Positions 900 through 53,903 of a DNA stretch of 64,000 nt are shown piece by piece. Both the position numbers and the translations under genes were made by a program. The DNA comes from Amoebophrya sp. A120 (lineage: Eukaryota; Protista; Dinoflagellata), in the NCBI GenBank assembly GCA_905178155.1, contig CAJINV010000002.1:10648709-10712708 (forward strand). Direction: 5' to 3'. Under the pieces are notes generated by a model. It searched no databases and was not told the origin of the DNA. It saw only the letters and a list, made by a program, of their open reading frames with translations. Each line of letters begins with the position of its first letter. The first letter of the stretch is position 1.

Positions 900-2580
900 C
901 TACGCTCCAGAAAGCGTTGGCACGCCTAGTATTTGCACCATCACAGCCTTGTCCTCCTCGATCTGTTTTTCCTTCGCCAAGGCTTCCTGCCTCGCCAACT
1001 GGTCCCGGGCGGACTCCTGTTTGGCCGGCGAATTGTTTCGCGTCGTGTAGTATCAAATGTAAAAATGTCTGGGTCTGGAAGATTGCGAGATTTGTCATGC
1101 ATATTTCGGATCACCCAAATGGCGTCTGATGCAGGCAAAAGCATCACAGGTTTTGAGCACGCCTCATGAAGCATGTCCCGCATGAGAAACTTCCTACTTG
1201 CGTGCCAAGAAATGGACAGCTTTTGGCGCTCATGCAACACAAATTTTTGTGTGTTCCAGAGTTTGCATCACAAGTTCCAACCCTTCCAGACCCAGACATT
1301 TTTACATTTGATATGTAGGTCGACGAGGCTGCGTTCTCTGCCGTGAAGGACAATTTTCTCGTATTACAGTGAAAAATGCCCCCCACCCCTTAAATTGTAA
1401 AAATTTGTGATGCGAAGTGTCCAAATGAAGACTTTTTGTCATGCATGAAAGGAGTATGCATCTTTCTGATGCAGGGTCTAGGCGTGTATCGCATCGCTTG
1501 CATGACAAGCGCCGCTCTTGCTGGGGTCTTTTGCAATACAATACATTCTTGCTGTTCACGATTGGAAACCTGTGATGCTGATAGATGCAAGAGGGTGAAT
1601 GTTTCATTTGGAAAGGTTTGCAATACAAATTCTCCCAAGTTCGGGGGTGGGGGCATTTTTCATTGTAATATCTCGCCCGGTTCCGTGCGCTGTTTTGCTT
1701 CGACGAAGAGGCGCTGGAGGCAAATCCTGGCTTGCCGCCGCGCTCAATCTCCACTGAAGCGTCCCGGACCTTGCTCGCTAGCTCCTTCAGCAATTTCTCG
1801 GTGGCCTCGTCGTCGAGTTGGCCGCGTTTGCTGGGGCTCTTCACCGAGCGGAGTTCCAGCGCTACACGCTCGACGAAGCTACGCCCCTGGCCCGCGATGC
1901 CGCCGACTTCGTTTTTCGGCGAGCGGGCGCTGCGCTTGGAGGTGCTCGCGATCGCTCCGAGAAGTTTTTGCACGTCAGATGTCGAGCCGGTCCGGGCGCG
2001 TGATTGATTTGGAGAGGACGCGCGCGACGAGGAGAGCACGTTGCGCGCACTGCTCGCACTCAGCATCAGGCGATCCTGTTTCGGTGTCAGGGATTCAATT
2101 GGAAAATAACGGAAGCGGGATTGAGAAGAGTAAAACTTCTCAGGCTGAGCGTGCAAAACCGTCGACGGAAAAAATCATATCCTGGACGCTACGTGTACGC
2201 ACCAAGAATAATAATACCTCCTGCTTTCCCGGAGCTTTTGTCTCCGTGAAGCTGGCAAACGCGCTTGACGGATAGAAGGGCGGTGGCTTTTTCGGCTTTT
2301 CTGCGGAACCTTTCTTTTTTTGCTCACTGTCAGATGAAGTCGGTTGCTTGGTAGACAAAAGCTCCGGTCGGGGTAGTGACGCGTCTTTCCGCGGAGTCTT
2401 TGCGCGCTTCGCCGACTTGCTACGGGTACGGCGTGCGGGGGCGAATGCGCCACCGGGTCTGTCTGTGATCTTGATGTTGAGGCAAGATTCCTTCAGCTTC
2501 AAAAAGCGATCGTATCGCTTCTCCTTTCTTTGGCACCGCTGCTGCAGCACAACTTCCTTGCGGGCGACCAGAACCTGGAG
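900..2580 (-). CDS. Hypothetical Ser/Lys-rich protein with one GT-AG intron (~2076-2216) and two inverted-repeat insertions; 5' exons uncertain
   Basis: Removing 1362-1670 and 1051-1313, each with one TSD copy, gives a continuous frame ...SARNRAR|KLSFTAENAASSTY|TTRNNSPAKQESARDQLARQEALAKEKQIEEDKAVMVQILGVPTLSGA* (TAG 902-900). Confidence 0.6.
1051..1313. mobile_element. Family A inverted-repeat introner/MITE, copy A1 (263 bp)
   Basis: TIR TATCAAATGTAAAAATGTCTGGGTCTGGAAG / CTTCCAGACCCAGACATTTTTACATTTGATA; TSD TGTAG at 1046-1050 and 1314-1318. Confidence 0.95.
1362..1670. mobile_element. Family B inverted-repeat introner/MITE, copy B1 (309 bp)
   Basis: TIR TATTACAGTGAAAAATGCCCCC(C)ACCCC / GGGGTGGGGGCATTTTTCATTGTAATA; TSD TCTCG at 1357-1361 and 1671-1675; closely similar to 26704-27008. 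Confidence 0.95.
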
Positions 2581-3329
2581 TTGAATGAAAGATTGTTCTT
2601 TAATACACATCAATAACATCAATAATATGCAGTGGCACTTTTTTCTTCCCTCCACTTCAAAAAAAATTATTGCAGGTCGTGCAAGAATAGAAAGCAACTA
2701 CATCAACTACCGCACGCCGTAGCTGCATCTCCTGCTTGGTACGCATCTGGATCCTACGTTGATCCTCTAGCGATACGCTATGTTCCCCGAAACGGCAGTA
2801 CCACATGGCTTCTGTCAGGCCCGCGAAAGTCAAAGAAATTAAAACAAGAAAAAACTTCTGTATTCTCTGAAAAGTAGACGCACCTTCTAGTAAGTCGATC
2901 CTTGCAGAAATCCCTTTCGAAGCTAAGCCTCAGCAGATTGTCGTCTCCGTTGGCGTTGTGCCGAAAAAGAAAGGCGACAAGAGAACCAACTCCAAATCTG
3001 ATGCGCACGCGAGCAACCGCGACGACATCTGTAATCCGAATCGTCGTGGTAACCTTCACCCTCAGCGCCCTCTTACACGAAGCTGCATCCATTGCGCTCG
3101 CACTCTTCGATGAAACAATGCCAACGACTCAACAGTTACGTCGGTGATTATCGAAGTCCAAACTTCAGAACACCAACGCCGACTACACCCGTCAGAGAGG
3201 CTTTAAAAATGACTCCACGGAGCAACTGCATGCACTATGCACAAGCTGAGCTGAAGCAACGAAAACGCCACGGCACTGATGACTCCAGTTCTAGTGCCGC
3301 GCGAAGCCATAAAGCCGTAGGGCACGGAA

Positions 3330-3990
3330 GGGTTTGGCCCTTCACCGCGGACGCGCCCAAGGTATTCAATGGGTACAATACGGCGCCGGTGCCGGTGCCC
3401 GGAATAAAGGCTGCGAGGAAACAACAGGCCGCCCGGGCAAAGGTCCGGGCAGCCGTGAAGAGGCGCGCCAGGCGGGGCCTCCGAACCACACACACGGCGC
3501 GCAATTAATTCGCGCGGCACGCTGCCGCCCGGGGTGCGCCGGGCCTCTTGCGGCCTAGCTGCAGCACAATCGCGCCCGGCGCCCTGCCGCGTTCCCTGCT
3601 GACTTCCCGGTAGAAATCTTGTTTCAGCTGCCGGCGATTCGTGTTTCGGCCTGCTCGCAAGGCGCTCGGCCAAGTCAGCGGACTGCTGGCGCACGTTTTC
3701 GCTAAGACTCGGCTGGCTCGCGCCTGGCCCGGAGTGCGCGAACATTAAGTAGAAGCGCGCTTCTCCTGGCGCGCGCAGGTAACGGGGCGCATCGTCGCGC
3801 TCACATTCATCGGCAGCCTGCATCTGGTGCGGCGCGTGGCATAAGCCGGCCACGGGGCGAAGCCGCGCCCCAATTTAAAAGGGCACGCAGGGCGGCGCTG
3901 TGTGTATTGATAGACCAGAATAGAGCGCCCACCCACGTAACGTATTTCCCGTCGCTGTGCATCATTGCAGCGCAGCATCGCAGAGTTCGC
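3330..3990. other. GC-rich, apparently non-coding island (possible degenerate mobile element)
   Basis: GC jump over the flanks; only low-complexity Arg/Ala/Gly ORFs; GTATT-N10-AATA sites near both ends (3362-3381, 3904-3923). Confidence 0.3.
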
Positions 3991-4214
3991 TCGCTCACAC
4001 TCGTGCTGGTGCCCTCACTCTCTGATACTCCATCGTCTCAGATACAGTAGCATCTCGACTCATCCTCCTACGCTTTTCCTCCCGCTCAGTCAACGAGAAC
4101 ACCCGCAGTCGCGACAGCGCCCGACCACAAATCTTTCTGTTGATGATCATTGTGCTGAATAGATACGGATCGATCAAATCACTGATCTGCGAATAACCAC
4201 GCCCTCAAATTATA

Positions 4215-5516
4215 TCAATCGTGATAAAAGCTGAATACTCTCGTTTCCTTTCCCCTCACGAGAACCAAATGCACACCTGAAAAGTCTTCTGGAATCTTTG
4301 TGTACAGACTCACATCGGTGCAGGGCTTTTCGAAAAAGTTGTCCTGAAACATGTCGTCGAGGGTCTGGGGTACGTGCTGCGGCCGCGCGTTTCTCAGCAA
4401 CGGATCGTAATCATCCACATCGGTTGCGTAGACATGAATATTGAAGTCCTGTTCATTGACTGAAGAGGCTTCCTTGCTGAAAAAATGCAGGATCTCCCGG
4501 AACAGTGACTCTGTGTTTTCCAGCATGTACTCCTCGAGAAATCGGAGCGCCGACAGAACTTTTGTTTGGATCTTCTTCTTGTTTTTGTCTTCTCGCGAGT
4601 TGTCAGCACTTTCTCCACCTACAGGAGCATGATCTTCTGCTGCTGGAGGCGTCTTCGAAATTCGAAAATGCCTCGCGAAATCTTCCCCCGACATCGTTCC
4701 CAGGAAGCTAACCAGAAGTGACGAAACAAGGTGCACCTCGTGCAGGCTGGAGTAGATCTGCTCCACGGCAAGAATACTGTCGTAGAAAAGCGCTTGCTTG
4801 ATCGACTGATGCGTAGAGGTCTTATTTGTCGACCCTGCAGACCGTTTGCGTGGACTCTCCTCCTCGTCTTCGCGGGCAAAAAAGCGCTCCTCCGTGGTCC
4901 AGAGGCGGATAACCCCTTCTCTGTCCGACACTGAGTGCTTACACAACGCGGGAAATTCCAAGAGCGCGTCCTGAATCGTCGTCGCCGCTGCTGATGCGCT
5001 GCCTGCGGCTAGGCTGATTCCCGCTGGGGAAAGCCCAGTGACCAAGGCTGCGTGTAGCGCGTTCTGCCCATCCACGGCCAACAGCACTTTCGGCTCGAGA
5101 AAGTGGTCCGCCCGCTTGCAGACCACCTCGTGCGTAAAAGCCGTCGGCGCGGGGGGAAGCTTCTCCTTGTAGTGTCGACTGATTAGCGCAATTTCTAAAT
5201 GATTCGCCGTTTTCGCCATTTCTCGACCGGCTAGACGACACAGCGGTAGGACCTTCTTTAACACGATCTCCCCCGCGTCAGCCGCTCCCGCGCGCAAGGC
5301 GGAGTGGGCGTGCGTCGGAATGTCCTTGTGCACGTACTCCTCCAAAATTTGCACCGCTTCGCACGCCGCTGTCTCACTTGCGGCGCTGCTGCTGATTGCC
5401 GTGGAGGAGGAGCTGCTGGACTCAATCGTGCTCACAGGGGTCTCCTTCTTTTCCAAAGCCCCTACGCGCGGCTGAAACTGGGCGCGAGAGACCAGCTGCG
5501 AGACTTTCACCACCAT
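4215..5516 (-). CDS. Hypothetical protein, 433 aa, single exon
   Basis: Long ATG-initiated ORF with protein-like composition; no family recognised. Confidence 0.7.
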   Translation of the reverse strand: MVVKVSQLVSRAQFQPRVGALEKKETPVSTIESSSSSSTAISSSAASETAACEAVQILEEYVHKDIPTHAHSALRAGAADAGEIVLKKVLPLCRLAGREMAKTANHLEIALISRHYKEKLPPAPTAFTHEVVCKRADHFLEPKVLLAVDGQNALHAALVTGLSPAGISLAAGSASAAATTIQDALLEFPALCKHSVSDREGVIRLWTTEERFFAREDEEESPRKRSAGSTNKTSTHQSIKQALFYDSILAVEQIYSSLHEVHLVSSLLVSFLGTMSGEDFARHFRISKTPPAAEDHAPVGGESADNSREDKNKKKIQTKVLSALRFLEEYMLENTESLFREILHFFSKEASSVNEQDFNIHVYATDVDDYDPLLRNARPQHVPQTLDDMFQDNFFEKPCTDVSLYTKIPEDFSGVHLVLVRGKETRVFSFYHD

Positions 5517-6009
5517 CTTGATTAGTTTCGCGAAGAAGTTGCGGATCTCACAAAACTGGAAGTAAAACTAGAACGAGGATGAAAAGCAGACCGACTAAGA
5601 CCTGAAAAATCTCGAAATCTATCACATACAGAATGTCGAGACCCAAGGACACGAGCTCGCATATAGCCGCTCCCCGCAGCAATAACAAATTCCCTCATCA
5701 AACTCCTCCATCTCGAGCATACCAAACCTCATTCCTTTTGGTATCTCGACAAGTAAAAATCGCAAGCGCTCCTAGTTTGAATCAGCGCTCACACCAAACT
5801 CGCAGACTTGATTGCGCACAGAAGTGTTAGCGGCGCGCGATGCAGGCGGAACAGGGGACCAGCAATGTGAGGCTTAATGCGCAGTCGGCGCACTTGTCTC
5901 ATTCATCACATTCTTCGTCTTTGCTTTTGCTTTGTGCGCCGAGGAGTTGCAAATCGGACTTCCACGAACCGTAATCCACGCTTTTAGCTACACCGCGCAA
6001 CAAGAGAAT

Positions 6010-7201
6010 TCATCTTTGTCTTTCTTGCTGCAGTTTCGTGACGTCGTCCATGATTGCGTAGGCCGGATAGACCAGGCCCTGCACCCGTTTCGCGACGTCG
6101 ATGAACTCGGCGAAGGTGATGCGTTCCGACTTGGCCTTTTTGGCCAGCGTGAACACCTTATCCACCCGCCGGTTGATGTCCTGTGTGGAGGACTGCTGCG
6201 CCAGAAAGTTCGCCTTCAGGATCTGGCCGATTTCTTCCTTGCCCAGGTGCCCCGTGTTCTCCGTGTCGCAGATCATGAACGCGAACTTCAGCCTTTCCTC
6301 CTTCGTGGTACTGGAGCAGTAGGCAGACAGCCCGACGATGAACTCGACCATTTCTACGGTTCCGCTCCCGTCCATGTCGAAGATGTCAAACAGCGCACGA
6401 ATCATGTCGTTATCGTCTTCCTCAAGCACTAAGCAGAACTCGGAGTAAGTGATACTCCCCAGCTCGTCGCGATCAATCTCCAAGAAGCGCTCGTAGTACC
6501 GCTTCAGCTCGTTCGGCGCCACAGCAAACTGCCGCAAGATGTTGTAGTTCTTTTCGGTTGCGTCACCCGGCTTCATGTCCTTGTCCGCATTCAAAACGTT
6601 CTTCCGCGCCGCCCGGGCCTCCTTCTTCCGCAGCTCTGCGGCCTGCTGGGCGCCCGCCACGTTCTCAATACCTGTTTCAGGAGGAGGGCACTTTCCAAAA
6701 AGCGTGACTCGCATGGTTGGCCGAAAGATCGTAACCGAAAGCAAATACTTTGTTCTGCCGATAGGCACACACCACACATACACACTGTACTATATCAAAC
6801 TTACCCTGTGACGCCAGCTGCTCGAGCTCCTTTTTTGTCTTGTCGGAGGCAAACTTGACGTTCTTCATTTCGTTCACCACCGCGGCCTCGCCAAACACGC
6901 GCATCCACTCCTCTATGCCGATCTGCCCGATCCCGTCCTCATCCACCATGCGGATCATCTCGTCAATCTCCTCATCTAGTGGCTTTTCCCCTAAAACCGT
7001 GAGAAAGTGCCGTAATTCCGCAGCCCCGATGAAGCCGTTGCCGTCCACATCAAGACTGCCAAAGGCTTCCCGCAACGCCCGGTGGCCGACCCCGGGAAGT
7101 TTCTGGGGCGGAAAGGGAAGTGCGAGGAAATCGCCCTTGTTGGCGGCGGCTGAGCCCGCGGCCGGCTGCGCCGCGTTCGTCAGCGCCGGCTTGCTTTGCA
7201 T
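6010..7201 (-). CDS. Multi-EF-hand calcium-binding protein (calmodulin-like N-terminal pair plus calcineurin-B-like C-terminal region)
   Basis: EF loops [60 protein letters not shown]; ERLKFAF motif; GT-AG intron 6672-6804 joins ...SQG|IENVAG in frame. Start uncertain. Confidence 0.85.
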
Positions 7202-7758
7202 GAGTTGTTTGCTATGAACGAACGTGGAACCAAAATCTGACTTGTCGCTCCGGAGAATTCGCTCGTGGGCTGAATGAAAGAAAGGCTCTGCCCTCAACAC
7301 ACTCACGTGTAGTACTTGATGCGGGTCCTGGTCGTGTGCGAATGTAGTAAAGACAGAGAGTACAAGAACTGTCGTAATAACATGTTTACGAGTAACTCAT
7401 CCGAGAACAGTATACTTACTTCGTACTGTGTGCGTTCCCGATTCCCCGAGTACGGAGTTCATGAAAAATAACTGGCACTTATCATGCCTGTCTTTCCTGT
7501 ACCGCATTGTCAAAATCAACGGCTAATGCCGTCTCAGAATCGCATGGGAACCATCCAATGGAAATGTCGGATCGATATCTGTGCTCGACATGGCGCAAGA
7601 AACCACTTGTTCGTCGACATGCTTCTTGTCCGATGTAGAGAAATAAACGCCGCGTATTGATTCGTAGTCACGACCGCCGCAAAAGCTCCTCTCAAAACGC
7701 AACTAGCTCGCTTGCCCTTTTCAACCGGTGCAGCTTCCCGATTTGCTTCCTCGACAAG

Positions 7759-8304
7759 TCAGTCTGGCACTTGCAGAGATTCCTCGAAGCCGCAGACTAT
7801 CTCTTTCGCCTGTTGCCTGCTTACCGCCGAGTTAGTCGGGTGTCCCTCCCGCTCCAACGAGCGGCGCACACGCGTTGCGGGAAGATCCAGGTGGTCGAAC
7901 CACGCGCACTCCAAATTTTCAGCGGTCAAGCCGTACCAAAGAGCCTCTGAAACCCACTGCTTACGCTGCCACTAATCGATGTTGCACCGGGCGATGATCA
8001 GGAGAAGGTTTTCGTATTCTGAACAGTACTCTTCTTTCCTTTCGCTTTCGTCCACGACGACGCCGCCTGTGACGTCAAGATTACTGAAAGGTCTGTCTGT
8101 ATTGCCCGACAAAAAGTCTTCATTAAGCTCCCGAAATTGCTTCACACAGGCCCAGCGCCTGGTGAGGTCGTCTCGCGAAATAATGTCCACACGCGTTTCT
8201 GGTCGGCAGTTTAGCTTCAAGTTCGCAGCAAAAGTGCAATTCCCCGAACCCGGTGTGCCCATCAGCACCAAAATGAGAATGCGGTCAGTCCCAATTCTTT
8301 GCAT
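7759..8304 (-). pseudogene. Probable pseudogene of an AAA_33/polynucleotide-kinase-like P-loop protein
   Basis: ILILVLMGTPGSGNCT (Walker A with Lys replaced by Asn), ISRDDL, LIIARCNID*WQRKQW, RRSLEREGHPT; family-like sequence continues past an in-frame TAG at 7972-7974. Confidence 0.6.
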
Positions 8305-8880
8305 GGTGAGTAAGAACGTCCCACAACTCCTAAAAACCACAAACTAGATCGTTATAGGAAACAGTAACTGAAAGAGAGACAGACTGCGACTGGCGGAACG
8401 GCTCTCGGAGAAGATAAAAACAGATCTCACTAGCGACTGAAAAGATCGGTTTATATGGCACGCTTTGACATTTTAGATATATGCGCAACAGCTGCTGCCG
8501 CGAACGGAACTACCTCCAGCAAAAATTTCTTAAAACGATTTGCAGCCGCCTGGTCACTCGTGCTACGAAGCTGAATGCTAAACGTACAGACAGTCAGTAG
8601 CAAAACGATAAACGATGCTCGTTGATGTTGTTCCTACAATATCAAATGTGAACATGGACGGTCCTCGTGAAGTGATAAAGCGGGAAAGTAACTACGTAGT
8701 GTGTCACCAAGCCTCGTGCGCTTTCATGCGAGATAGAGGACTATGACGAGTGTATTCTCAAAGTAAACATGTGAAAATGTCCCACGGGGGGCAGTGGTCC
8801 TTTCTCTTACACACGCCGGTTTACATTTTGAAAAGTTTTTCTTTCGTCGTAGTTATTTTTACAGCCAACAGTTTTCTTTA

Positions 8881-11628: not shown

Positions 11629-12932
11629 TCACAGATATGAGGGTATGATCTCACGGTGCTGCCCCTCGAGTTCCACTACTCGGTCCGCCGGCTGTTCCTG
11701 CGTTACTGCCGCGGTAAATTCCGAGGGACCGCCCGGCGTCGAGGAAACTGTCGAAGGTGAGCCTGGGCCGTCCGCCGGCGGAAGGACCAGAGCCGGCTGG
11801 TCTAGTCGCAGCTCCTGCAATTGCCGTGCCGCTTCGTTGATGCCAAAGTCCAGATCGGCTGGCGCTGTTGATCCCAAGCGCACACTGCAAGGCATCGAGT
11901 TCGGAGACTCTGTGCGTTGCGGTGTTTCGCACCCGCTGCTAGAACACGAGTCGTCCTCGTCCACGTCAGCGGGCTGGATTTCAGTTGCGTTGTTTTCTTC
12001 TTCTGTTTCCAAAGCTCACAAAAAAACGTGACTTTCTGTTTCTTCTTATGAAAAAAAAAAAAAAATAGAGTATTCTTCGTGGGGATCTTCTACCAAGAAG
12101 ATACTATGCGCTCCTTTCAAAAAGAACGCTCGGAGTCGAAATCGTCTATCTAATAATGTTAATATCAAAAGAAAGTTATAGATACCACAATCCCTGTATC
12201 CCTGCTGTTCCGGATTTCGAGCTCTTGCGCAACGTTGGCAAACTCGATCGCTGCCTGCTCCGGTGTGAATATCACGGCATGCCGCCTGGCGGGCAGCCTC
12301 CTGTTTTGCAGCCGAGACTGCTGTATGGATTGCAAAAATGTCTGGGTCTGGAACAAAGCAACTTGTCATGCTAAATCAGAATCATGTAAAAATCTGTGTT
12401 GCATGATTCCCAAAAGCTGTCCACTTTTGACCTAATCGAGAGGCACTTTCTCATGCAGCATAGGCATGATAGAGCTCTCACAGAATCTGTCATGCTATGT
12501 CCTATATACCAGACCTCATGGGTTATGGAAAACCTGCATGACAAACCTGCATTCTTCCAGACCCAGACATTTTTACATTTGATATGCTGCACACGCTCTT
12601 GCACCGCAGCGTCCGGGTTCGGCGCGTCCACGCCCTCGTGGCTGCTCTTCTATGGATTGCAAAAATGTCTGGATCTGGAACATTGCAACTTGTCATGCTG
12701 TCTTTGGATTCCAAAAAAATCTGTATTGCGTGACCAGCAACAGGAGTCCAGTTTGTGTATACGCGGAGAGGGAATTTCTCATGCGGAATAGGCATCAGGA
12801 AGCCCTCTAAAAATCTGTGATGCTAAATCATGCATTACATGTGTCATGGATCATACACAATATGCATCACAAACCCCGGAATCTTCCAGACCCAGACATT
12901 TTTGCAATCCATATCTTCCGGGAGCACACCAT
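11629..12932 (-). CDS. Hypothetical protein interrupted by two family A elements
   Basis: After removing A3 and A2: MVCSRK|SSHEGVDAPNPDAAVQERVQ|QSRLQNRRLPARRHAVIFTPEQAAIEFANVAQELEIRN; the join to the acidic ORF 11629-12012 is unresolved. Confidence 0.45.
12324..12584. mobile_element. Family A element, copy A2 (261 bp), internal orientation opposite to A1
   Basis: TATGGATTGCAAAAATGTCTGGGTCTGGAA ... TTCCAGACCCAGACATTTTTACATTTGATA; TSD TGCTG at 12319-12323 and 12585-12589. Confidence 0.95.
12651..12913. mobile_element. Family A element, copy A3 (263 bp)
   Basis: TATGGATTGCAAAAATGTCTGGATCTGGAA ... TTCCAGACCCAGACATTTTTGCAATCCATA; TSD TCTTC at 12646-12650 and 12914-12918. Confidence 0.95.
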
Positions 12933-16283: not shown

Positions 16284-17240
16284 GTTGAGATCTTGTCTGC
16301 GCCCTGCAATGAGGCAGCGAGGGCTCTTCGTTTTCTCTTCTTGACGTTGATAGTGGATCACAAAATTATACCTGGACGCCAACAAAGCAAGAATCAAAAA
16401 CCAACTCAGATTGAGCAGCTCTCCGGGAGTGACTTCGCCATAAACTCTCGAAGTAGCCCACATTACTTCATGCACAAACAAGTGGCCCTGGCGCTGGCCG
16501 ACCACATCTCTACAATTCTCCTCCGCTCGGGCCATATTTTGTTGTACTGAAGCAGAAGAAGTGGAAGACACGAAGAAAAAGAAACGGGCTTGCAGAGAGA
16601 ACAAGCATTTTTCAGTGACAACATCAAAGCGAAACCACTGCGACGCGGAATGCATGCCCATCGTCGATTTTCGTATTGTAATTGTTGTTTGACATGTTGC
16701 TGTGCTCGTAGCCGTGTAGTACATTCGTTTCCTGCTACAAGCGATGTCAAAAGGTTTGTGGGCTTCTTTCACTCAAAAGGAAACGGGATCGTTTCCTCAA
16801 GAGAAAAAAGCGGGGTCGGGACGACCGGATTAGTGGGGGGACTTTCTTGATATGAGATGATCCAAGTTCTGTCGAAACTTGGGAATATCTCATATCGATA
16901 TGTATCCACCTTCAGAATACAAGAGCGAAGAACGAACGAATAAAGCTAGCTACTCTGGGTAAAACGTCGGGTGATCATCGGAAAAACCGAGCATTGCGAT
17001 CGGTTTCCCCTCTTCGTCAAGTCGATGTCCTCGAAGCTTCTGCTTCAATACTGGAAAACAAAAAACTCATGACTTGGGTCGTCGTGTGTAAAAACTGTAA
17101 ACTGGAATTCGTCAGGTGGTCAGTACACAGATATCGTCGAAGGAAGTACTTAAACCACATATCATCGATGTCAACATCTGAAGAGACTTCAAAGCAAGCA
17201 GTCGCCCATTTGTAATTGTATGTAACCCTACATCAATGCC

Positions 17241-20200
17241 TTACTGCGGCGCTTCTTCCTCGCGGTAAATCGCGAGGTCATACCCTCCTGGCTGCATGCG
17301 GTAGTGGGAGAAAACCCTCTTCTCGCTGGAAAACCAACCGCTGTAGTGCCACTCGACGCGGACGAACTTCTTCGCCAAGTCGTACTTCAAAACGGTGCCG
17401 AACGGACAGCTCCAGTGCTCGTCCTCGTACCGCCAGTGGAGGCCCGGGCGCACCTTCATCCCCTCGTGCACGTTCGCGACGGTGACGCGGCGCTCGTTAT
17501 CAAATGCAAAAGTGTCTGGGTCTGCAAGAGTGCGCGACTTGTCATGCAGCTTTTCCATGACCCATGAGGCCTCGAATGCAGGATCTAGCATGACAGATTC
17601 TGTGCGATCTCTCTCATGTCTATCCTGCATGAGAAACTCCCTTCCGACTTGGTCAAAACTGGGCGACTTTTGGTAATCATGCAACACAGATTTTTGCATG
17701 CTTCAGATTTAGCATGACAAGTTGCATTCTTCCAGACCCAGACATTTTTACATTTGATACTCGTTCTTCAGGTACGATTCCGCCCACTGCTTGTCCAACG
17801 GCGCGGCGTCCGGCTCGGTGCGGAGGTGCACGACGCCGAAGCTGTCGACCAGGGCCGTCGGGGGCAGTTGGTTCATCCCGACGTTCCCGGAGGACGGCGA
17901 CGCAGCGACGCAGCCATAATTTCCCCGGTTTTTACTACTTTCATCCAGGTCGCGTACGGTTTGCACGTCGAAGTCCATCTCGGTGACGCCGAGCGAGTTG
18001 CGCGGCTGCCACGCGGCCATGTCGTTCTCCGAGTCCTTCTCGTTTTTCGCGCTCAAACCGAAAACCGCGTTGTGCAGCATGTCATGCCGCTCCCGCTTTT
18101 CCACTTCGCTGCGACGCGACGACGCTTTTCCGTTCTTGCCGCTCGCCTTCTTGGTACTAGGAGGGTTCTTCTTGTTCCTCTCCTCGCTGAATGACGCAGC
18201 ACTCATCGTTTGCAGATGATCTTCGTGCGATAAACTTTTTTCCGCCAGATCATGCTCCGCGTCGGACAACGAGTCCACACTCTCCATTTGCGCCGGATGA
18301 TGATTTGCGCTGCTATTTTTCTTTTTGTTTGCTTCTGGGTAGGTAAATTCGTCTTGCTTTTCCTGCCGTTGCCCCGCAACCGCCCTTTTGTTCTTCACGA
18401 GCAAGCCCGCCTCCTGCGCTGCCATGCCGTGCGGGAGCTCCACCGGCACGCGGACCTTCTGCGCAATCACGAGCTTTTCGTTCATGGGGTCCTGGACGTA
18501 GACCACGGTTTCCCGGAATTTCTCCGTCGATTTCCCGCCGTCGTTGGGAAGGTCCTGGAACTGCTCACCGCCTACCGCGCCGGTGCAAACCTGGTCCTCG
18601 GGGACCGCGCTCAGCCCGGAATCCAGCCCCTGCTCCTTCAACCGGGCCTGCTGCTCTGCACGCTGCCGGGCCGCCATCTGGTCGACCTGATGTTGTAAAA
18701 GTTGAACGAGTTCATTGATATTGGATACTAGGTTGGTACTGTGGTCGCGTGAGAGAATTGATCCGATGAAAGGACGCTAGTAGATCGAAAAAAATCCTAT
18801 TATACTCACTCGTATCAGAAACTACAAACTATTTCCTACTCAAAAATCTATACCAGCACGCGCTCTAGTAATTTCCGCACACGCACCAAGTTTTCCATGG
18901 GCTCTGCGCCACTCTCTAGCCCTTCCGGAAGGTACACGTTGACCGGGCACCCCTGTTGGGGGATCTCATGCAAGATCCGCTCTTTCAAATGCGCGTACAG
19001 CGGGTCCTCCGGGTTCATGTTCCGGTCCTTGTAGACCGATGCGGCGACGATCTGCTTGCTGTTGCGGATCTGTTCGAAGATCATGAAGGCGAGGTTCCGA
19101 AAAGCGGCGTTCACCAGCCACTCGGGACAACCGCTCGAAACGTGCGGCGCCAGGTTGATCACGCACTGCAGGTAGCAGGCCTTTTTCGTGGGCGACCGCG
19201 TGTCCATCGGGGTCAGAAACATGAAGCTGTTGTCCAAGTACGCCCGCTGGCTGCCGTCGTACTCCTTTTCGTTCTCTGCGGAGTAGTCGCTGGACCGGGT
19301 CAAAATCTCCCGTTCCTCCTTCGGCCCGACGTTCTCCATGTGCAGGATGACCTGCTTTACCTCCTTTTTGGCGTCTTCCTTGTTCTCCGGAGCCGCCATC
19401 ACGTCGTAGCCCCGCACGCGAAAGCAGACCTTCCGCCAGGCGAACGGAAAGGGCAGCTTCAGCAGCATGCGAACCACGAAGTTGGATTTCGATTTTCGCT
19501 CCAAAACTTCGGATTTGACCAACCCCAACCCCATGAAGCTCGGGCACCACTCCTTCCACAGATCCGCCTCGTTTAGAAGCGACAACAGAGAGAAAAGATC
19601 CAAGTCGCACTGCCCCTCGATGGCAAAGGTGTACACCCGCGTGTCCTCCTGTTTCGGGTCCTGAAACACCATGTCGGTCCGCATGGCCGCGCGGATACCG
19701 TCGGTTTCGCGGATGATGCGCCACTTGGAGACGGGCTTGAAGTCCGGCTTCGGCTGCCGCCTTGCAACTGCGGGGGAAATCAGGTCCACGCTGGTCTTGT
19801 CGCTCATGTTGTCCAGCGTCAGTCCGTCCGAATACGCGACGGAATCGGACTGGAGGTCGTTCGCGGTCACCTCGTGGTGCCCCATGCTGCCCTGCGGCAA
19901 CACCGGCGAGAAGTCGTTGCGGTTGTGGGTTTTCCCGAAATCGATCACTTCCTCGTCGGAAAGCGAGTCGAAGATATCGGATGCATTTTCATCTGGCGCA
20001 CCATTCTCTTCTTCCGCTTCGTAGCTGCCGAGACTGCCATGATCAAGGTCCTCGTCCTCTTGTGCGAGGACCCGCTCCAAGTCACCCGGCCGCCGCACGG
20101 ATTTCCTCCCGGGCGCGTCCTCCAGCCCAATCTGCACGGACTTGCGCGTGTTGCTTTGCGGCGCGTCCTGCAGCGCGTCCGGTTTCCGCAAGGGCGGCGG

Positions 20201-21325
20201 CGGCGACTTGCGCTTCACGACCACTGCGGGTTTTGATGGCTGCTGCACCACCGGGTTTGCCGCCTCCTCCGCCTTTTTCGCCTGGCGAATACGGCCCCGC
20301 TCGATCTGCGCGAGCGTCGACCGCACCTGGGACACGAGCTGGAACCGCTGGACGATCTCCTTGATCTGTGGGTCCTTGTTGTCCCTCTCTAGATATTCGG
20401 CGTTGAAGGTGCGGTCGAGTAAATAGCCCGCCACCATCAGCTGATCGTCTTCGAAGAACAATTTCTTCGCCTCGGCGATGGCTTCCTCGGGGGTCCGTAA
20501 CCGTTCCGGCTCCGGGAAAGGCAGCTTCTCGTTCGCCTCCGCATGCTCCACGCGCTGGCTGAGACGGTTGCAGGTCGCGTCAACCTTCGCTTTCATCAAT
20601 TTTTCAGAGAGGCGCGAACAGGTCGAGGACCTCCGACGTTCGGGTATGTTGGCGTTCCTGTCTACCACAACCGGGGCTCCCGATCCGTTTTCGTGTAGTT
20701 CATCATCGTCGGTGGACATAGTACTGCTTGGGCTTTCTTCTTCGTACTCCTCATCGCTGAGATTAACAGAAACCTCTCCGGCTGTCGTGGGGGTGGTCGT
20801 TCGGGAGATCGAGTCTCGTCGCTTGATGTCACTTGAAGATATAGTTTCGCCGTGGTTCGCAATTACCTCGTCAGATTCCGAGCCGGAACCCGCGGCGGTG
20901 TTGAATCTTTGTTTGTCGCTAGCGTCGCCATCGTGGTTGTCCACACTTTCTCGAAAAGTTACCGACTTGTTCGCTGTGCTACTCTTTCGGAGCGAGGAAT
21001 GCTTTTCTGCCAGGAGATCCACCGCCATTTTCCCGGACGGTACGGATTGTTCTTTCTCCTGGGCAGTCATCGCTTCAGATGGAGATACAGCGTTGTCCTC
21101 TCTCGCAGGCTCGTGCAAATTATATTGTTCCCCGGACGGGCGGTCTTCGAGCTGCTCAACAACAACTTCGGGTTCTATGTGTGGGGGCGGCGATTCCAGC
21201 TTTACTTCTTCGTCTGGAGAGACAGATTCCTGGATTTCCAGGTCGATATTAGCCATCTTACGGGCAGTATTACGCACCCGCTTTCCACCGGAGGTGGTCG
21301 TCGGGCCCTTCCGCCTTTCCGGCAT
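17241..21325 (-). CDS. START/SRPBCC-domain protein with a C-terminal MIB/HERC2-like domain
   Basis: START-like segment AIEGQCDLDLFSLLSLLNEADLWKEWCP...LKLPFPFAWR; predicted phase-0 GT-AG intron 18687-18853 joins LERVL|VDQMAARQ; removing A4 gives LKNE|RRVTVANVHEGMKVRPGLHWRYEDE...GTV...VRVEW...YRMQPGGYDL. Confidence 0.7.
17498..17759. mobile_element. Family A element, copy A4 (262 bp)
   Basis: TATCAAATGCAAAAGTGTCTGGGTCTGCAAGA ... TCTTCCAGACCCAGACATTTTTACATTTGATA; TSD CTCGT at 17493-17497 and 17760-17764. Confidence 0.95.
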
Positions 21326-22570
21326 TCTGGTGTGGGGTTTGGGTTCTTACCGAGAAAAAAAGTAGAAGAGTAAAAGTAGTTCAAGAAGGAAAACCAAAAC
21401 ACGTAAAGTTGTAAATGTAAAGGTTTTTCGTTCGTTTTGTTTCTTCGCGATGGATTCAAAAAGGACAGATACAAATACTGAAATGGTCTTCCGAAGAGGC
21501 GTGTTAATGTATTGGATGATCTTCGAAGTAAACAATCAGATGATGAACCAGAGTAATTTTTCGACTCTTCAACCCTGATTGATAATTATTTGTGTACGGT
21601 CTAAACTAAAAACTTGTAAATCTCAAAATCAACGGGTTTTTGACTTCTTCTAGGTTCCTCGATTGTGAACTGGGAATGATTTCGAGCTTTATTTGGATCT
21701 ACTTTGACACACTTTTTTATGGGACCGAGCGCGAGCTGCGCGAAGGAAATGATCGGATATGGATGGATCTCTGCCATTTCTCATTTTTCGTGAAACCGAG
21801 GAATGCAGACTCCAGTAAGGTCGACTACTCAGGATCCAACCGATTTCTCGACTGTCGCTATTCGAATCTTGACACTAATTTTTCATGGTAGTATCATGTA
21901 AGAAGTACCCTTGTTCATCAACATACAGTGTCTGGCTAGCTTGACCGACCAGTGCTCCGATAAATCATGAAACACTCAAATTGTGCACCTCATCATGGAC
22001 CAGGCTCGCGACGATCCTTGTTCCGAAAAGTTTAGTACTTGTGTGCAAAGACCGCTTCGTGTGTGGCAAGATGGTGCAACTAACTTGAAGCGAAAGATTA
22101 AAATCTAAGTCTTTCACATGATTGGCGCGTGATAGTGTTTCAGACAGGCAATCGTGGCAATCGCGATATACATCCTAGCAACTGTATATCATTGCTCATG
22201 CGAGAATTCAATCAGCTACGAGTGTACTGCGCAACTCAGCCACAAAACCGAAATTCATTTTCAAACATCGTGGGGAGGTACGTCCCCGCACTTTGTGCTT
22301 CAAAACGCGGACGCATTGACTGTGAGAATACATAGCACTAGTCTCCTACGATCTCTAGTGCCACGTAGTGACCAGAGTCACCCCAGGAGCAACAGCATTA
22401 CTCAAAACCTTCAACTACTTAGAGAAGATCCACAACATGCGTTTGTACCCGTGAGCGGCGCGAAAAAAAATCTGTGGGTACACTATGACAGACATGGACA
22501 CAAAAATATTGGCGCAATCAAGTAAGTAGGCTGTCCTGCCTTGTAAAAAATCATGAAATTCCGAATAATA

Positions 22571-25046
22571 TCACGAGTCGTCTACTTCCAGCGGTTCCGC
22601 AAACGGTACCTTCGTAATTTCGAGGTTATTGTATCCCCCGCAACACAATATCTGCTCCGGTAGCTCGTCATCATCCTTGCCCTCGACCAGCAGAGCGTAT
22701 TCGGTTTGCGCGGCAGGAAGCTTGCCCAACACCGTTGGTATTGCGGTGCGCATATCGCAAGGAAAAATCCCCCCTCCCCATATCAAAACGAAGTTTCTGA
22801 TGCTGGATTTGCGTACACAAATGAGATTTGTCTTGCTGGCGAGGACTGCAGGCCCATACTAAGCCTGAGTCTACAGGTTTTGGCCTACGCGCTTAGCATG
22901 ACAGACGTCGACGCTGTAGCTAAAACAGCATGACAAACCTCCTGTAGAATGCGGCGGAGCTTGGGGAGTTGCGTTCATGCAACACAGAGACGATTTGTGA
23001 CCTCAAATCAGCAACGCAAATTTTCGGCAACATACCTTTTCAATATGGGGAGGGGAAATTTTTCCATTTGATATCGCAACGCGTAGCCCCAGGTTCGCAC
23101 GTCGTAGTCTATCTCGAGTATCTATCAAATGTAAAAATGTCTGGGTCTGGAAGAATGCAACTTGTAATGCTGTCTGCGATTCTAAAAGTATCTGTGTTGC
23201 ATGAGCAGCAAAAGGAGTCAGTTCTTGGCACGCGGAGAGGCAATTTCTCATGCGTAATTAGCATCAAGAAGCTCTCAAAAAATCTGTGATGCTAGCACCA
23301 GCATCACAGACCTCACGGGTCATGCAAAATGTGCATGACAAGTCCCGACTCTTCCAGACCCAGACACTTTTGCAATCCATAGTATCCGGGGCGCATGCAC
23401 CCTGTTGAACCGCGCGCTGTAGGAAAGGAGCACGGGCTTACCTGATATTGCGTAGTTCAGGTCATACACTGCAGCTCAATTGCGCTTGATATGATTGAGC
23501 ATTTCAGGACGCATGAGTAGAGAGAAAACATTCGTGAAAATCTACTAAGAGAGTATAGTACGACGAAACTCTATGCATCCGCAACACCCTTAAAAAGCCT
23601 GCGTTTGAGTTTCAACATACCGTTATAGCTCTTGAACAGGTTTGGCACGTTCATTTCGGCCACGTTCCTGACTTGCACGATTTTTTTCAGCGCCAGCCCC
23701 TTTTTCTCGCTCCGGCCCTGATCCACGATTCGTTTCCACAGCCGCAGCTGTGGCGTCCAGGTGCCAGTGGAGAGGAGTCGGATGGCCTCATCGGATAGGA
23801 TGAAGTAGCCCACGAGGTTGAACCCCAAGTCGTCTACCGGATGAGAGCTGAACAGCCCGCCAGACTTGAACGGTACCTCCCCGTGCTCCACTAAGATTTC
23901 CGGGATGCCCCACTCCTCCTTGTAGCCCGCCTTGCGTATCCCAGAGAAAAAAGCTGGCAGGGCATATTTGTAATGCAAAAATAAATACACACAAAAATTT
24001 GTCATGGGTGGCCCCATAGCATGCTGTTTCGGATATGCAATAGAGATTTTTTTGTGTATTTATTTTTGCATTACAAATGTGTCCTGCCAGCTTTTTTCTG
24101 TGTGATATTGCGCGGAAACTTGCAGTCCCAGTTGCTCACGATCTCGTGTATCCTGCCGTTTTTCGCCTGCACCACGTCCCCGCCGATCAAGTCGTACAGG
24201 GCGGGCTTCGAAAAAATCTTCTCCCCGGACTGCTTATACCCGACGTTGCGTACCTTGAACCTCGTGGCCGAGGTCTCCATGTTCAGCTCTTTCGGCAACG
24301 AGTCAAACACGGAGAACCACGGGATTTCCGCTGCGAGATGTTGAGTAGAGATGAGGTGCGCAATGCGATTTTTCACCCGTAAAAAATGGAAGCCTTCTGG
24401 TGTGTGCTGCTGCAAGAAAAAAAAATCGCAGCCATGTAGACGTGTCGTGTTCTCGTGTAGTATACGGAAGACAGATTCTCGAAAGAAAAAGCTGATCTGT
24501 GGAAGTACCTCCTGGCGGAAAAGCCCTCCCGGGACTTTGCGAGCTCCAACTCATTTGCCTTGAGAGTGTCATGCTCAGCACGGGCCGGGCTTCGGAAAAG
24601 TCGGACCGCACCGTTCTCATATCGTCCTCCGTGTCTATGGATAGCAAAATTTTCTCGTTCTGGCTCACGGCGCTCACTTCCGTTAGCGAACCGGTCAATC
24701 CGCGGGCGGCTGTATTTGGGAACCGGGTTCTTCAAGTAGAAGTTTTGTATAGTATGTGCACCGATAAAGGACCGACACAACCAACTACGTACAAAAATCG
24801 GGTAACTTTATTACGTTGGATTGTGACTTTGTCTGTGCTTGTGAACAAATCTTGTTTAGAATAAATCAGCCGGCTGAAAGAATCTTAAAAACGTTTTGCA
24901 CGACTGGGTGGGTTTTCGCTGCTGGAGACCGGTCCGCTCGCATTCGTATCCTCCTGCATTTTGCTTTCCGCCTCTAGTGGTGCCTGCTGTTTCTTCGGCG
25001 ACTTAGAACCGCTCGCAGCGCCCCAGGGCCCGCAACACACGCCCAT
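22571..25046 (-). CDS. EDR2 C-terminal (DUF1336) domain protein with a probable acylated N-terminus; three inverted-repeat insertions plus GT-AG introns
   Basis: MGVCCG start; FKVRNVGYKQSGEKIFSKPALYDLIGGD; FPR|KAGYKEEW (D removed); SYNG|KPVLL (GT-AG intron 23442-23620); PRI|LEIDYDVRTWGYALR|TAIPTVLGKL...LLVEGKDDDELPEQIL (A5 and C removed). Confidence 0.8.
22753..23073. mobile_element. Family C inverted-repeat element (321 bp)
   Basis: TIR TATCGCAAGGAAAAATCCCCCCTCCCCATAT / ATATGGGGAGGGGAAATTTTTCCATTTGATA; TSD GCGCA (22748-22752) vs TCGCA (23074-23078), one mismatch. Confidence 0.9.
23123..23381. mobile_element. Family A element, copy A5 (259 bp)
   Basis: TATCAAATGTAAAAATGTCTGGGTCTGGAAGA ... 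TCTTCCAGACCCAGACACTTTTGCAATCCATA; TSD GTATC at 23118-23122 and 23382-23386. Confidence 0.95.
23937..24107. mobile_element. Family D inverted-repeat element (171 bp, ~60-bp TIRs)
   Basis: TATCCCAGAGAAAAAAGCTGGCAGGGCATATTTGTAATGCAAAAATAAATACAC... mirrored by ...GTGTATTTATTTTTGCATTACAAATGTGTCCTGCCAGCTTTTTTCTGTGTGATA; TSD TTGCG at 23932-23936 and 24108-24112. Confidence 0.93.
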
Positions 25047-25879
25047 CTTGTAGTATTTCCGCTGCGCGGGAACTACCGAGGCAGAAGGCGTCGAGGACGA
25101 AGACGACGCTTTCGACTCTCGATTGCTCGTCAAAAGCGCACCCGGCGGCTTCTGCTCGCTCTGCCTCTCGTCGTCGCGTAAGAGTCCTTGAATTTTGTCG
25201 TCTGATGTTGAGGTGGACGACAAACCAGCGCAATGGGAAGACTGATCCTGATGTTCCCGTGCCATTTAGTAGAGGCTCCTCATACAGCTTGTGCTATACA
25301 GTCTTGACACCACCGGCCAAAGCAAAACACGAAGTAGATTCAACAACCGCAGCAATCAAGACGAGAAAGGCCTCGAAAATGTTGTTGTACAATTACCCAA
25401 CCAATTCGATGTCGTCACTACTGACATCTTCATCAGAGGACGATTCTACAGGTGTTGCGCCGCGGACTATTGTGCAGTCTCATTCTCACGTTGCTGGCCG
25501 CTTTGCGTTTACGATTGACCCTTGTTTAAAAAGTTAGAATTGACCATACCACGCTCCCAGTGACATTTCACAGCGCTCAAATTGGTACTTTCTTTGGGCA
25601 CAAAGAAATCAATGGACACAGGCCGTCTGGTCCCCTCGCGGAACAGAAAAAGTACGCATTGATTCCAAGCAGCATCGCGCTTGTCTGTCCTGTAGTAGCT
25701 CACGACCACGATGGCCCACTCCCGTCAGGGCAACATTCGTGATAGTCCAGTAGAGAAAAAGAGAAACAAATGAATCTGTGTGCATGAAAAGCAGAAAAAA
25801 CACTCATTTCTACACTCAGCAACTTTTCAGTCTTTCGTCCAGGGATCAAAGCAGGCTCTCCACCACAATTACTTACTTA

Positions 25880-28104
25880 CTACACATAACTCCCAAACAC
25901 CCCACAGTCGTACTTTTCCTTCCACGGATTGGGTGGCTCCGTTATGAACGCCCGGCGCTTTGTCAGGGCAACTTCGCCGGCAAACGAGGAGGATGGCATG
26001 TTGTCGAGTATCACGGGCCCGAAGTGTCCCTGGCGAAAAAAACGCAGGAACCAGCGCACGCCCGCCAGCAAATCGACCGACGCTCCCCGCTCCAGCATAT
26101 CCGGCTGCATGTGCTCTGCGAGATGTTTGACGCACTCGTCAATACTGTTCGTGGGCTGCTTACTCGGCAGATCCAGGGCTTTCACGTACTGGAACTGGCG
26201 CATCTTGTTCAACTTAAAGAGGCAGTAGTCCGCGAGGTACCACTCGCCAACTAAGTGGTCCGGCATGACACCAAGCAAGCACAGATTGGTTTGCTTTTCC
26301 AAATTTTCCACGTTCTTCAGAAGCATCATTCCGGGCGTGTCCACGCAGTGGATCATGGGCTTGCGCGAAATCAAAAACGTGGACTGCCCCTTGCAGTGGC
26401 GCGTGGTTTATCGATTGTAAAAATGTCTGGGTCTGGAAACTTGTGATGCTGTTTGTGCATGACACAGGAGGTCTAGCATGCAAGTCCTAGCAACACAGGT
26501 TTTGAGCAGGTTAGGCGATGCCGAATCCGCATGACAAGTTCCCTCTTTTGGTGGCAAGAAGTGAGCAACTTTTGCGGGGGTCCATGCATGACAGGTTTTT
26601 TTCTGTTCTCAAATACGCATTAGAAATTTACATGTTTCCAGACCCAGACATTTTTACATTTGATATGGTTCCGGGCAGCATGTTGGTCTTCGCCTCATTC
26701 ATCTATTACAGTGAAAAGGGCCTCCCACCCCAAGGTTGCAAAAATTTGTGATGCGAAGTTTCCAAATGAAAACTTTTTGTCATGCATGAAAGGAGTATGA
26801 AGCTTTCTGATGCATATTCTAGTCGTGGTTCGCATCGCTTACATGACAAGCACCGCTCTTGCTGGGATCTTTTGCAATACAAATTTTTGCTATTCACGAT
26901 CGGAAATCTGTGATGCTGATACATGCAAGAGGCCGAATGTTTCATTTGGAAAGGTTTGCAATACAAATACTTTCAAGTTCGGGGGTGGGGGCATTTTTCA
27001 TTGTAATATCATCTTCACGTCCTTCATGATATCCGGGTCCACCTTGTGACCGAGCGTGAACGCGTACTGCTTCAACCCGTTGATGATGGTCGATTTCCCG
27101 ACGTTCGGCAGCCCCACGACCATCATCCACAACCCCACCGTGTTGTGCTTCACGTCGCAGTTCTCCACGATGAACTCCCGGATCTTGCCGGTGTTGATTT
27201 TTTCCGACGCGGAGATCAGCAGGGCGGGCTTCCCCAGCTCCCGCATCACGCCCAGAATCCGCCGCGCGTCCTTCGCGGAAATCAGGTCGACCTTGTTGAA
27301 AATCGTCAGCTTTTTCAGGCGTTTGGGCTGCTGCACCTGCGACAGGCTGTTCCCATTGTACAGCGCGGACCCGATGTTGGACTGCGAGATGGTGCTGTCC
27401 TTAAAGCCTAACTCCTCCAACAATTCCCCCTGGCACGAGGAAAAGGGCGCGCGGGCGTCGCGGACCTCCAGGATCAAGTTGATCCCCCGCTCCACGCGCT
27501 TCTTCAAATCCACCTTCGCTTTGCTCATGTGCCCCAGCCACCAGTGCGGGTAAAAGTCGAAGGCAAACTTGTCCCGCGCAACAAACTCCGGGAACGGGTC
27601 GGGGAACGCGGAGGGACGGACAGCGGAGGACGTCGTGTTTGCCGCGTTTTGATGTGTAGTATTTTCTCGTCCTCGAGGATCAGTCGAGCTACTAGTACTC
27701 CCTCTCGACGAGGTGGACGACGATGCACTCGCATCGGCATCCCGGTGGTCCTGCGCACTTTGATCACGCTCAACGTCTCTGTGCTGTCGAGCCGAGAAGC
27801 CCTCCGCTGAGGTCGTAGTCGACTGCTGCTTTTCCCGCACCCTCGCGATCCAGTCCTCCTCTGGCATGTTGGGCTGGATCCGCTCGAACGGGTCATCCGC
27901 ATGATGTTCTTTCCTGGCATTGTTTTTTGTTCCGTTTCTATCTGCAGAGTGAGTGGAGGTGCTCGCCGCTGTTTTCAAAGTTCTGGATGGTGGCGTCAAG
28001 TGACACGTCGGATGGACAAAGGTCGCGCCGGCGCGACCTCTTTGGCACCAGTGATGCAATAGTAAATTGCTCCGGGCCCGAGCTTTTGCAGAGCTGCTGT
28101 GCAT
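25880..28104 (-). CDS. MTG1: Circularly permuted ribosome-assembly GTPase of the YlqF/RbgA/MTG1 family, probably mitochondrial
   Basis: WWLGHMSKA, LEVRDARAPFSS, G4 NKVD, G1 VVGLPNVGKSTIIN, G3 DTPG; G2 PGTTR appears only after removing B2 and A6 (VKM|NEAKTNMLPGT|TRHCKGQSTFLISRKPMIHCVDTPG); basic, acid-free N-terminus. Confidence 0.85.
26409..26665. mobile_element. Family A element, copy A6 (257 bp)
   Basis: TATCGATTGTAAAAATGTCTGGGTCTGGAAAC ... GTTTCCAGACCCAGACATTTTTACATTTGATA; TSD TGGTT at 26404-26408 and 26666-26670. Confidence 0.95.
26704..27008. mobile_element. Family B element, copy B2 (305 bp)
   Basis: TATTACAGTGAAAAGGGCCTCCCACCCC ... GGGGTGGGGGCATTTTTCATTGTAATA; TSD TCATC at 26699-26703 and 27009-27013; same orientation as B1. 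Confidence 0.95.
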
Positions 28105-53833: not shown

Positions 53834-53903
53834 AGTTGTTTCCCCAAAAGAACCAGTGGCTCTGGCAGTTGCCAGAGCCACTGGTTCTTTTGGGGAAACA
53901 ACT
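53834..53903. repeat. Perfect hairpin, 34-bp arms with a 2-nt loop
   Basis: AGTTGTTTCCCCAAAAGAACCAGTGGCTCTGGCA-GT-TGCCAGAGCCACTGGTTCTTTTGGGGAAACAACT. Confidence 0.95.

Follow-up and report, generated by a model that had tools for sequence, protein, structure and literature searches.

How a transcript can be cleared of insertions that bear no splice-site consensus is the question raised by a 64,000-nt stretch of contig CAJINV010000002.1 of the parasitic marine dinoflagellate Amoebophrya sp. A120 (hereafter the window), in which five genes, all on the minus strand, are interrupted within their coding frames by ten short elements (E1-E10) with terminal inverted repeats (TIRs) and 5-bp target-site duplications (TSDs). 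The window's exons match four A120 proteins at 99-100% identity, and the ten elements are almost certainly members of the introners described from this organism; the element system is already published, and the phenomenon as such is not new. At all eight sites covered by transcript-derived sequence (E3-E10), the element and exactly one TSD copy (5 nt) are absent from cDNA, and we consider it very probable that this removal acts at the RNA level in vivo. The elements are given below, with the coordinates including both TSDs in brackets.

E1: 1051-1313 (1046..1318), minus strand, family A, TSD TGTAG, 268 nt removed; joint removal with E2 gives the C-terminus of the orthologues
E2: 1362-1670 (1357..1675), minus strand, family B, TSD TCTCG, 314 nt removed
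E3: 12324-12584 (12319..12589), minus strand, family A, TSD TGCTG, 266 nt removed
E4: 12651-12913 (12646..12918), minus strand, family A, TSD TCTTC, 268 nt removed
E5: 17498-17759 (17493..17764), minus strand, family A, TSD CTCGT, 267 nt removed
E6: 22753-23073 (22748..23078), minus strand, family C, imperfect TSD GCGCA/TCGCA (4/5), 326 nt removed
E7: 23123-23381 (23118..23386), minus strand, family A, TSD GTATC, 264 nt removed
E8: 23937-24107 (23932..24112), minus strand, family D, 62-nt TIR, TSD TTGCG, 176 nt removed
E9: 26409-26665 (26404..26670), minus strand, family A, TSD TGGTT, 262 nt removed
E10: 26704-27008 (26699..27013), minus strand, family B, TSD TCATC, 310 nt removed; separated from E9 by a 33-nt exon

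Anatomy of the elements and their absence from transcripts

Every element begins with TAT and ends with ATA, and in the inverted repeat (IR) the TAT is followed by about seven variable bases and at least three A residues (10/10). The TIRs measure 28-62 nt, the TSD is perfect in nine cases and matches at four of five positions in E6, and eight of the removed lengths are not multiples of 3. A first-pass annotation, made from the sequence alone, had listed ten TAT...ATA elements of four families with TIRs of ~30-60 bp, 5-bp TSDs and the same removed lengths; all of this is reproduced save for the imperfect TSD of E6, and a generic detector (TAT..ATA plus TIR plus TSD) run on the 64 kb returned exactly these ten, with none in each of five base shuffles. 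The six family A members are 70-84% alike and the two of family B 89%. Short, non-coding and bounded by TIRs and a TSD of fixed length, the elements have the make-up of TIR DNA transposons that are non-autonomous (miniature inverted-repeat transposable elements, MITEs), and nine of them carry in-frame stops. Nine have relatives at 84-97% identity among loci fetched from another assembly, with none there for E8, and the summed contig depth over element bins is 10^4-10^5 against ~45 for unique DNA, a figure that is not a copy number. The predicted hairpins reach z-scores of -6.2 and -7.6, element positions 11-25 are predicted to pair with a probability above 0.9 in eight of ten, and each 3' end has a U-tract at a distance of 11-15 nt; Rfam has no match in the window. 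A further hairpin candidate at 33596-33770 was set aside, as it lacks TAT/ATA and overlaps coding sequence. No TAT...ATA element occurs at 28000-64000 despite several long open reading frames (ORFs).

None of the ten elements offers GT-AG in any register slid across the TSD, on either strand, as the annotation had maintained, and GC-AG is likewise lacking; at one register E1 reads AT-AC, and E2 and E4 read AT-AG. U12-type introns have the donor consensus RTATCCTT and may end in AT-AC. Among the ten, AT-AC is available in E1 only and a TCCTT donor in no element. A purine at -1 was also considered as a donor signal, with A preceding TAT (sense strand) in eight window elements, and rejected as chance on the larger sample described below, where the base before TAT is A in 42, C in 41, G in 47 and T in 27 of 157 oriented elements.

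The transcript evidence comes from two sets of raw cDNA reads (X7 and X8), which have a different study code from X1-X5, and from contigs of X1, X2 and X4, which derive from one sample and whose RNA status is a guess; the contigs of X5 are DNA-like. None of the sequencing runs listed is recorded as RNA. X7 and X8 have almost no reads on genes 4 and 5, and X9 has none on 21900-28300. The 266 nt of E3 are skipped exactly in 357 X8 reads and an X1 contig, the 268 nt of E4 in 467 X8 reads and an X1 contig, and the 267 nt of E5 in 383 X7 and 215 X8 reads and an X1 contig, while contigs of X1, X2 and X4 skip 326, 264, 176, 262 and 310 nt at E6-E10. The precise loss of element plus 5 nt that the annotation had predicted is thus found at 8/8 covered sites, and cryptic GT-AG sites outside the TSDs are used at none of these eight. 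Its suggestion that canonical and non-canonical removal operate within one gene also holds: a single 2149-nt contig of gene 4 loses E6-E8 together with three CT..AC introns (GT-AG on the minus strand). Depth in element bins of X7 and X8 tracks the exonic fraction, from which we estimate a retention of a few percent at most. Only 2 of 10,358 and 0 of 8,414 reads of these two libraries fit two places, so that TIR sequence is nearly absent from them. In X5 the listed exon-element junctions are crossed at a depth of 42-47, the level of unique DNA, and none of three listed joined forms occurs among the joints listed, in contigs that drop rare variants and come from an unspecified life stage. The joint of a full-length circle is likewise missing among the joints listed.

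Host genes and restored frames

The five host genes are:

Host gene 1: 900..2806, minus strand, protein conserved within Amoebophrya, public model P0050; carries E1 and E2
Host gene 2: 11629..12932, minus strand, ~200-amino-acid frame of unknown kind; carries E3 and E4; GT-AG intron 11974-12185
Host gene 3: 17241..21325, minus strand, 1216-amino-acid protein P0049; carries E5; GT-AG intron 18687-18853
Host gene 4: 22571..25265, minus strand, EDR2_C (PF07059) protein P0048; carries E6-E8; GT-AG introns 23442-23620, 24331-24508 and 24710-24892
Host gene 5: 25880..28104, minus strand, MTG1-like mitochondrial ribosome-associated GTPase P0001; carries E9 and E10

Removal of the elements restores the frame in all five genes, in agreement with the annotation; at E4 the upstream frame is only four codons long, so that there the reads carry the evidence and not the frame. 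The assertion that the elements lie in conserved coding sequence stands for genes 4 and 5, stands within Amoebophrya only for gene 1, and is not shown for genes 2 and 3. In gene 5, E9 interrupts the conserved PGxT stretch of the GTPase, the joined protein aligns across both junctions with A25 and other alveolates, and the A25 protein is contiguous over the E9 and E10 positions (a comparison of proteins and not of orthologous DNA). The EDR2_C domain of gene 4 spans E6-E8. Translated transcript joints of genes 4 and 5 give the public proteins P0048 and P0001 exactly, and P0049 of gene 3 is already without E5; the public models of three of the five host genes therefore have the elements taken out. 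A homologue search with gene 3 gave one match, itself, and for gene 2 the one exon scanned has no Pfam match, with no homologue search made.

In gene 1, removal of E2 and E1, each with 5 nt, yields a frame of 205 codons, the end of which matches the orthologues from A25 and Ameob2 with scores of 62 and 57; combinations that are out of frame score 29 at most. Alternatives with the same net frame reach 61, so that only the joint frame of E1 and E2 is fixed. The public model GSA120T00020208001 (P0050; window 900-1675) runs into E2 and is marked partial, and the C-terminus that matches the orthologues lies beyond E1; the reading of P0050 into E2 is likely an annotation error. The exon after E5 (17244-17495) finds no match in Pfam; by eye we take it to resemble a repeat of the MIB/HERC2 type. 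Gene 3 shows an additional T after 19364 in 373 of 415 X7 reads and a near-fixed C>T at 18616 in X8, each a library artefact or a strain variant.

Insertion, spacing and cut position in a larger sample

A scan with one family A TIR word drew at least 151 loci (L001-L151) from another assembly, which may differ from the window in strain; none of these loci has a flank in common with the window, and one copy among them is 97% identical to E1. With TAT..ATA required and up to two TSD mismatches allowed, the detector found 260 distinct elements among the loci listed, 220 with a perfect TSD, 34 with one mismatch and 6 with two. A codon model trained on window ORFs, which assigned the right strand to 10/10 window elements, oriented 157 of the 220 perfect-TSD elements. 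At 136 of the 168 sites whose flanks are long enough, taking out the element and 5 nt leaves at least 25 open codons on each side, as against 74-90 of 168 for other removal lengths and 54% for random positions, and 115 of these 168 sites lie in coding frames versus 35% of 832 random positions. Of the 157 oriented elements, 7 could be read as GT-AG, against 9.0 expected by permutation; across the same 157 the TSD bases are unbiased, and neither G at -1 nor AG at any register shows a gain. Removal of family A works in both orientations: within the window E5 and E9 have one orientation and E3, E4 and E7 the other, in host genes that are all on the minus strand, and in the larger sample 30 copies have the orientation of the host, 29 the opposite and 34 are ambiguous.

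Where the two TSD copies have diverged, 15 of 27 oriented single-mismatch cases are synonymous versus 27% expected (p=0.0016), indicating that the host genes were kept under protein selection after insertion; the excess over a model in which one copy is free is not significant (p=0.07). Single mismatches are spread evenly over the five TSD positions (6, 7, 5, 7, 9), and this evenness, along with the double mismatches (6/260), suits a ruler better than homology-dependent jumping. The A-run occupies positions 11-15 across the 260 elements, which were preselected for TAT..ATA, and ends outside family A likewise read TAT(C/G) with an A-run at 11-15. At least seven TIR classes with a common TAT(C/G)...AAAA end are seen among the loci listed, with family median lengths of ~150, 213, 262, 279 and 307-310 nt. 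One 972-nt family A element (L074, 3514-4485) has perfect TIRs, the TSD CGCCG and an unrelated AT-rich interior, which is possibly captured DNA.

The elements also tend to lie close to one another. Neighbour gaps of 43 (1319-1361), 61 (12590-12650), 44 (23079-23122) and 33 nt (26671-26703) occur in the window, and across 80 long loci (L001-L080) 45 of 147 neighbour gaps fall at 29-79 nt against 10.6 expected, with one of the same 147 below 29 nt against 7.4; the null is uniform placement, not limited to exons, and overlapping loci are counted twice, so that the excess is somewhat overstated. With the searched element left out, 20 of 60 gaps are at 29-79 nt. Thirty-seven of 50 close pairs join different families, and no nested elements were found, though elements cover 17.5% of the long loci. 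This clustering suggests that insertion is steered by resident elements, together with a minimum exon or footprint of ~30 nt.

The motif TTGYNATGC, which was defined once the sequences had been inspected, has 20 copies in the 2,671 nt of window elements, 16 in an 867-nt tandem array at 54034-54900 and 3 in the remaining 60,462 nt, and is present in 250 of the 260 elements of the other assembly. The wider region 53531-54900 holds a tandem array of three 289-nt repeats, with palindromic TGCAAATTTGCA units and several hairpins, and lies between the minus-strand gene block and plus-strand genes from ~59914; the latter include a MAP-kinase-like gene near 59914-61800 with GT-AG introns, as judged by eye.

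The position of the cut is constrained by E6, whose transcript joint in the X1, X2 and X4 contigs is 22748>23075. The transcript retains G22748 and loses T23074, and this mismatch between the TSD copies means that, as read on the sense strand, the nucleotide immediately ahead of TAT is removed as part of the intron. The first base of the intron lies 1-5 nt ahead of TAT and its end 0-4 nt beyond ATA; a start at TAT itself is excluded. Any cut inside the repeats fits the E6 outcome. Mismatched TSDs are present in 40 of the 260 elements of the other assembly; taken without RNA, these 40 include no stop-codon cases and give no direction by position as to the cut register. The phase at which the TSD starts is biased (36, 47, 74; p=0.0007), with codon position 3 in 74 of 157 elements, above expectation, and these sites would become phase-0 introns if the cut followed TSD base 1 or 4.

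Known systems and candidate mechanisms of removal

Farhat et al. (2021) reported 29,850 introner elements in A120, with IRs starting from TAT, direct repeats (DRs) and support from RNA sequencing (RNA-seq), and described U1 as not found, U11/U12 as absent, a transposase as not found and the removal mechanism as open (PMC7789003). The connection that the first-pass annotation had drawn to that work is exact: the organism, the end made up of TAT, seven variable bases and an A-run, and the direct repeats that border the elements (5 bp according to the legend of Fig. S19) are the same (PMC7789003), as are RNA-seq-supported removal, genes of mixed canonical and non-canonical introns, lengths of ~150-320 nt and the lack of a transposase inside. 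The published account gives DRs of 3-5 nt at variable position and IRs of 8-20 nt, whereas the window elements have a strict 5-bp TSD outside TAT...ATA and TIRs of 28-62 nt, which is no difference in kind (PMC7789003). Gozashti et al. (2025) placed many A120 families of comparable length among the TIR DNA introners, for the most part with non-canonical ends, and noted integrase-like ORFs between the TIRs of A120 family 38 (PMC12130899). Orientation independence, the lack of a GT-AG advantage, the E6 cut constraint, the clustering at 29-79 nt and TTGYNATGC were not found in the parts of the open-access literature consulted, nor was an open-access paper found that resolves the removal mechanism in Amoebophrya.

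Several systems elsewhere share part of this anatomy. The nonconventional introns of euglenids likewise have a TIR stem joining their ends, TSD-like junction repeats and no GT-AG (PMC11282704; PMC11170887), occur beside spliceosomal introns, have a likely MITE origin and are cut a few bases outside the stem; they differ in a pyrimidine|purine junction consensus and CAG/CTG stems, where the window elements have unbiased junctions and TAT/ATA ends (PMC11282704). Their release as circles without lariats provides a precedent for TIR-stem introns (PMC11282704). Introns of Fritillaria borealis are also derived from TIR/TSD transposons and escape GT-AG genome-wide, but they prefer AG-AC and AG-AT ends, and that species has kept U1 and uses duplicated U2AF (PMC11282704; Soo et al. 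2026, PMC13326754), whereas the elements studied here show no preferred ends and no U1 has been found in A120. The MITE introners of Micromonas and Aureococcus are non-autonomous, have TIRs and TSDs and become introns upon insertion (PMC7789003, PMC9860276); they carry or co-opt canonical splice motifs, and the window elements do neither. Falsitrons, which are skipping artefacts of reverse transcription, resemble the window elements in a hairpin whose base carries short direct repeats, in apparent ends that are non-canonical and in their detection in cDNA, but are partial and dispensable, whereas skipping in the window is near complete and needed for conserved proteins (PMC8240250).

As to the arrival of the elements, their TIRs, the fixed 5-bp TSD and the many copies make insertion by a transposase the simplest account. 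Likely a DNA-type transposase acting in trans inserted them, an enzyme deduced from the observed anatomy; it would recognise the TAT(C/G)-N6-AAAA end together with TTGYNATGC and make a 5-bp staggered insertion without preference for target sequence. In the transcript, pairing of the TIRs is predicted to form a long stem, with the two TSD copies brought side by side. Both copies would then be cut at matching positions, 1-5 nt ahead of the 5' UAU and 0-4 nt beyond the 3' AUA, a range taken from E6, and the exons would be joined; the outcome is that observed in cDNA, and the chemistry is what we infer from it. With the same motif at both ends either orientation would work, as is seen for family A, and the GT-AG introns, which are observed to leave the same transcripts, would be taken out by the normal spliceosome. 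Since removal is blind both to junction bases and to orientation, its signal should reside in the symmetric ends. The reading that we prefer, to which we give about an even chance of being right, is one of RNA cutting and joining by a nuclease and a ligase measured from the TIR stem, with non-spliceosomal chemistry; it is placed ahead of a modified U2 spliceosome mainly because GT and AG bring no advantage.

A number of points weigh against this preference. Neither a nuclease, ligase or transposase nor a lariat or circle was observed, with no genome search made for a transposase or ligase. The transcript data are all cDNA and cover E3-E10 only, E1 and E2 lying outside the reads, and X1, X2 and X4, the contigs of one sample with a guessed RNA status, may together with X5 underlie the assembly itself. 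Mismatches in the sense-strand stem comprise 186 G-U and 197 A-C, with no visible selection on RNA pairing. A nearly complete U2 spliceosome is kept in A120 (PMC7789003), and the U2 spliceosome can adapt to TIR-derived non-canonical introns, as in Fritillaria (PMC11282704, PMC13326754). Moreover, a cut 1 nt before TAT gives an N-TAT donor like three of five confirmed canonical donors (GTATC, GTATA, GTATG).

These last points favour a rival that is quite possible, though we hold it below the nuclease-ligase reading, namely a modified U2-type spliceosome without U1, in which a TIR-binding adaptor or the stem positions both splice sites, N|TAT (the last TSD base and TAT) as donor and an acceptor 4 nt beyond ATA, the terminal bases being relaxed and the intermediate a lariat. 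The set of spliceosomal proteins is nearly complete, with U1 not found (PMC7789003), the E6 joint permits the -1 register while ruling out a start at TAT, canonical donors here are often GTAT, and the U-tract 11-15 nt from every 3' end and the rarity of inter-element gaps below 29 nt would also suit it, as would the precedent of Fritillaria (PMC11282704, PMC13326754). T is second in all nine leading A120 motifs of Table S4 (PMC7789003), which may be the aligner's choice. However, neither G at -1 nor AG at any register is enriched in the 157 oriented elements, removal is independent of orientation, the donor and U-tract would both be buried in the predicted stem, and no conserved branch motif is seen by eye across the TIR variants.

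That the elements are instead skipped by copy choice or template switching during reverse transcription is improbable. Falsitrons are recognised by a hairpin with short direct repeats on its flanks (PMC8240250), the E6 outcome fits template switching and is what such a jump predicts, and the stem has no G-U bias; the terms for reverse-transcription polymerase chain reaction and template-switch controls are absent from the main text of Farhat et al. (PMC7789003), and direct-RNA data for Amoebophrya introns were not found in the open-access literature. Yet skipping here is near complete as compared with up to 70% of reads for falsitrons (PMC8240250), central and double TSD mismatches are tolerated, and nine of the ten elements carry in-frame stops while the host genes are conserved and remained under selection after insertion, so that removal must take place in vivo. 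We regard as very improbable a programmed excision from DNA before expression, comparable to the removal of internal eliminated sequences in ciliates. Such sequences likewise have TA-containing ends, short direct repeats and a transposon origin, and the enrichment of insertions in coding frames (115/168 versus 35% of 832) would agree with it; on the other side stand the X5 contigs, which cross the listed exon-element junctions at unique-DNA depth with none of the three listed joined forms, and no germline-soma split is known from this parasite.

The nuclease-ligase reading can be extended, tentatively and with some doubt, to a third mRNA-splicing system: a nuclease-ligase blind to sequence and orientation, possibly drawn from the transposition machinery, would read the TAT-N7-AAAA stem and TTGYNATGC and undo in RNA the 5-bp staggered insertion, and its end-binding protein may direct insertions to a distance of 30-80 nt from elements already in place and also attach to the motif array of the divergent strand-switch region.

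The removal of tens of thousands of Amoebophrya introns without a splice-site consensus is an open question (PMC7789003), to which the window contributes clean substrates: the loss of three families from one transcript of gene 4, the marked TSD of E6 and a family A present in both orientations. With the constraints added here, these loci allow the mechanism to be put to a direct test. If removal is indeed non-spliceosomal, it would amount to a new mRNA-processing machine, by which a transposon would be rendered harmless at any exonic site.

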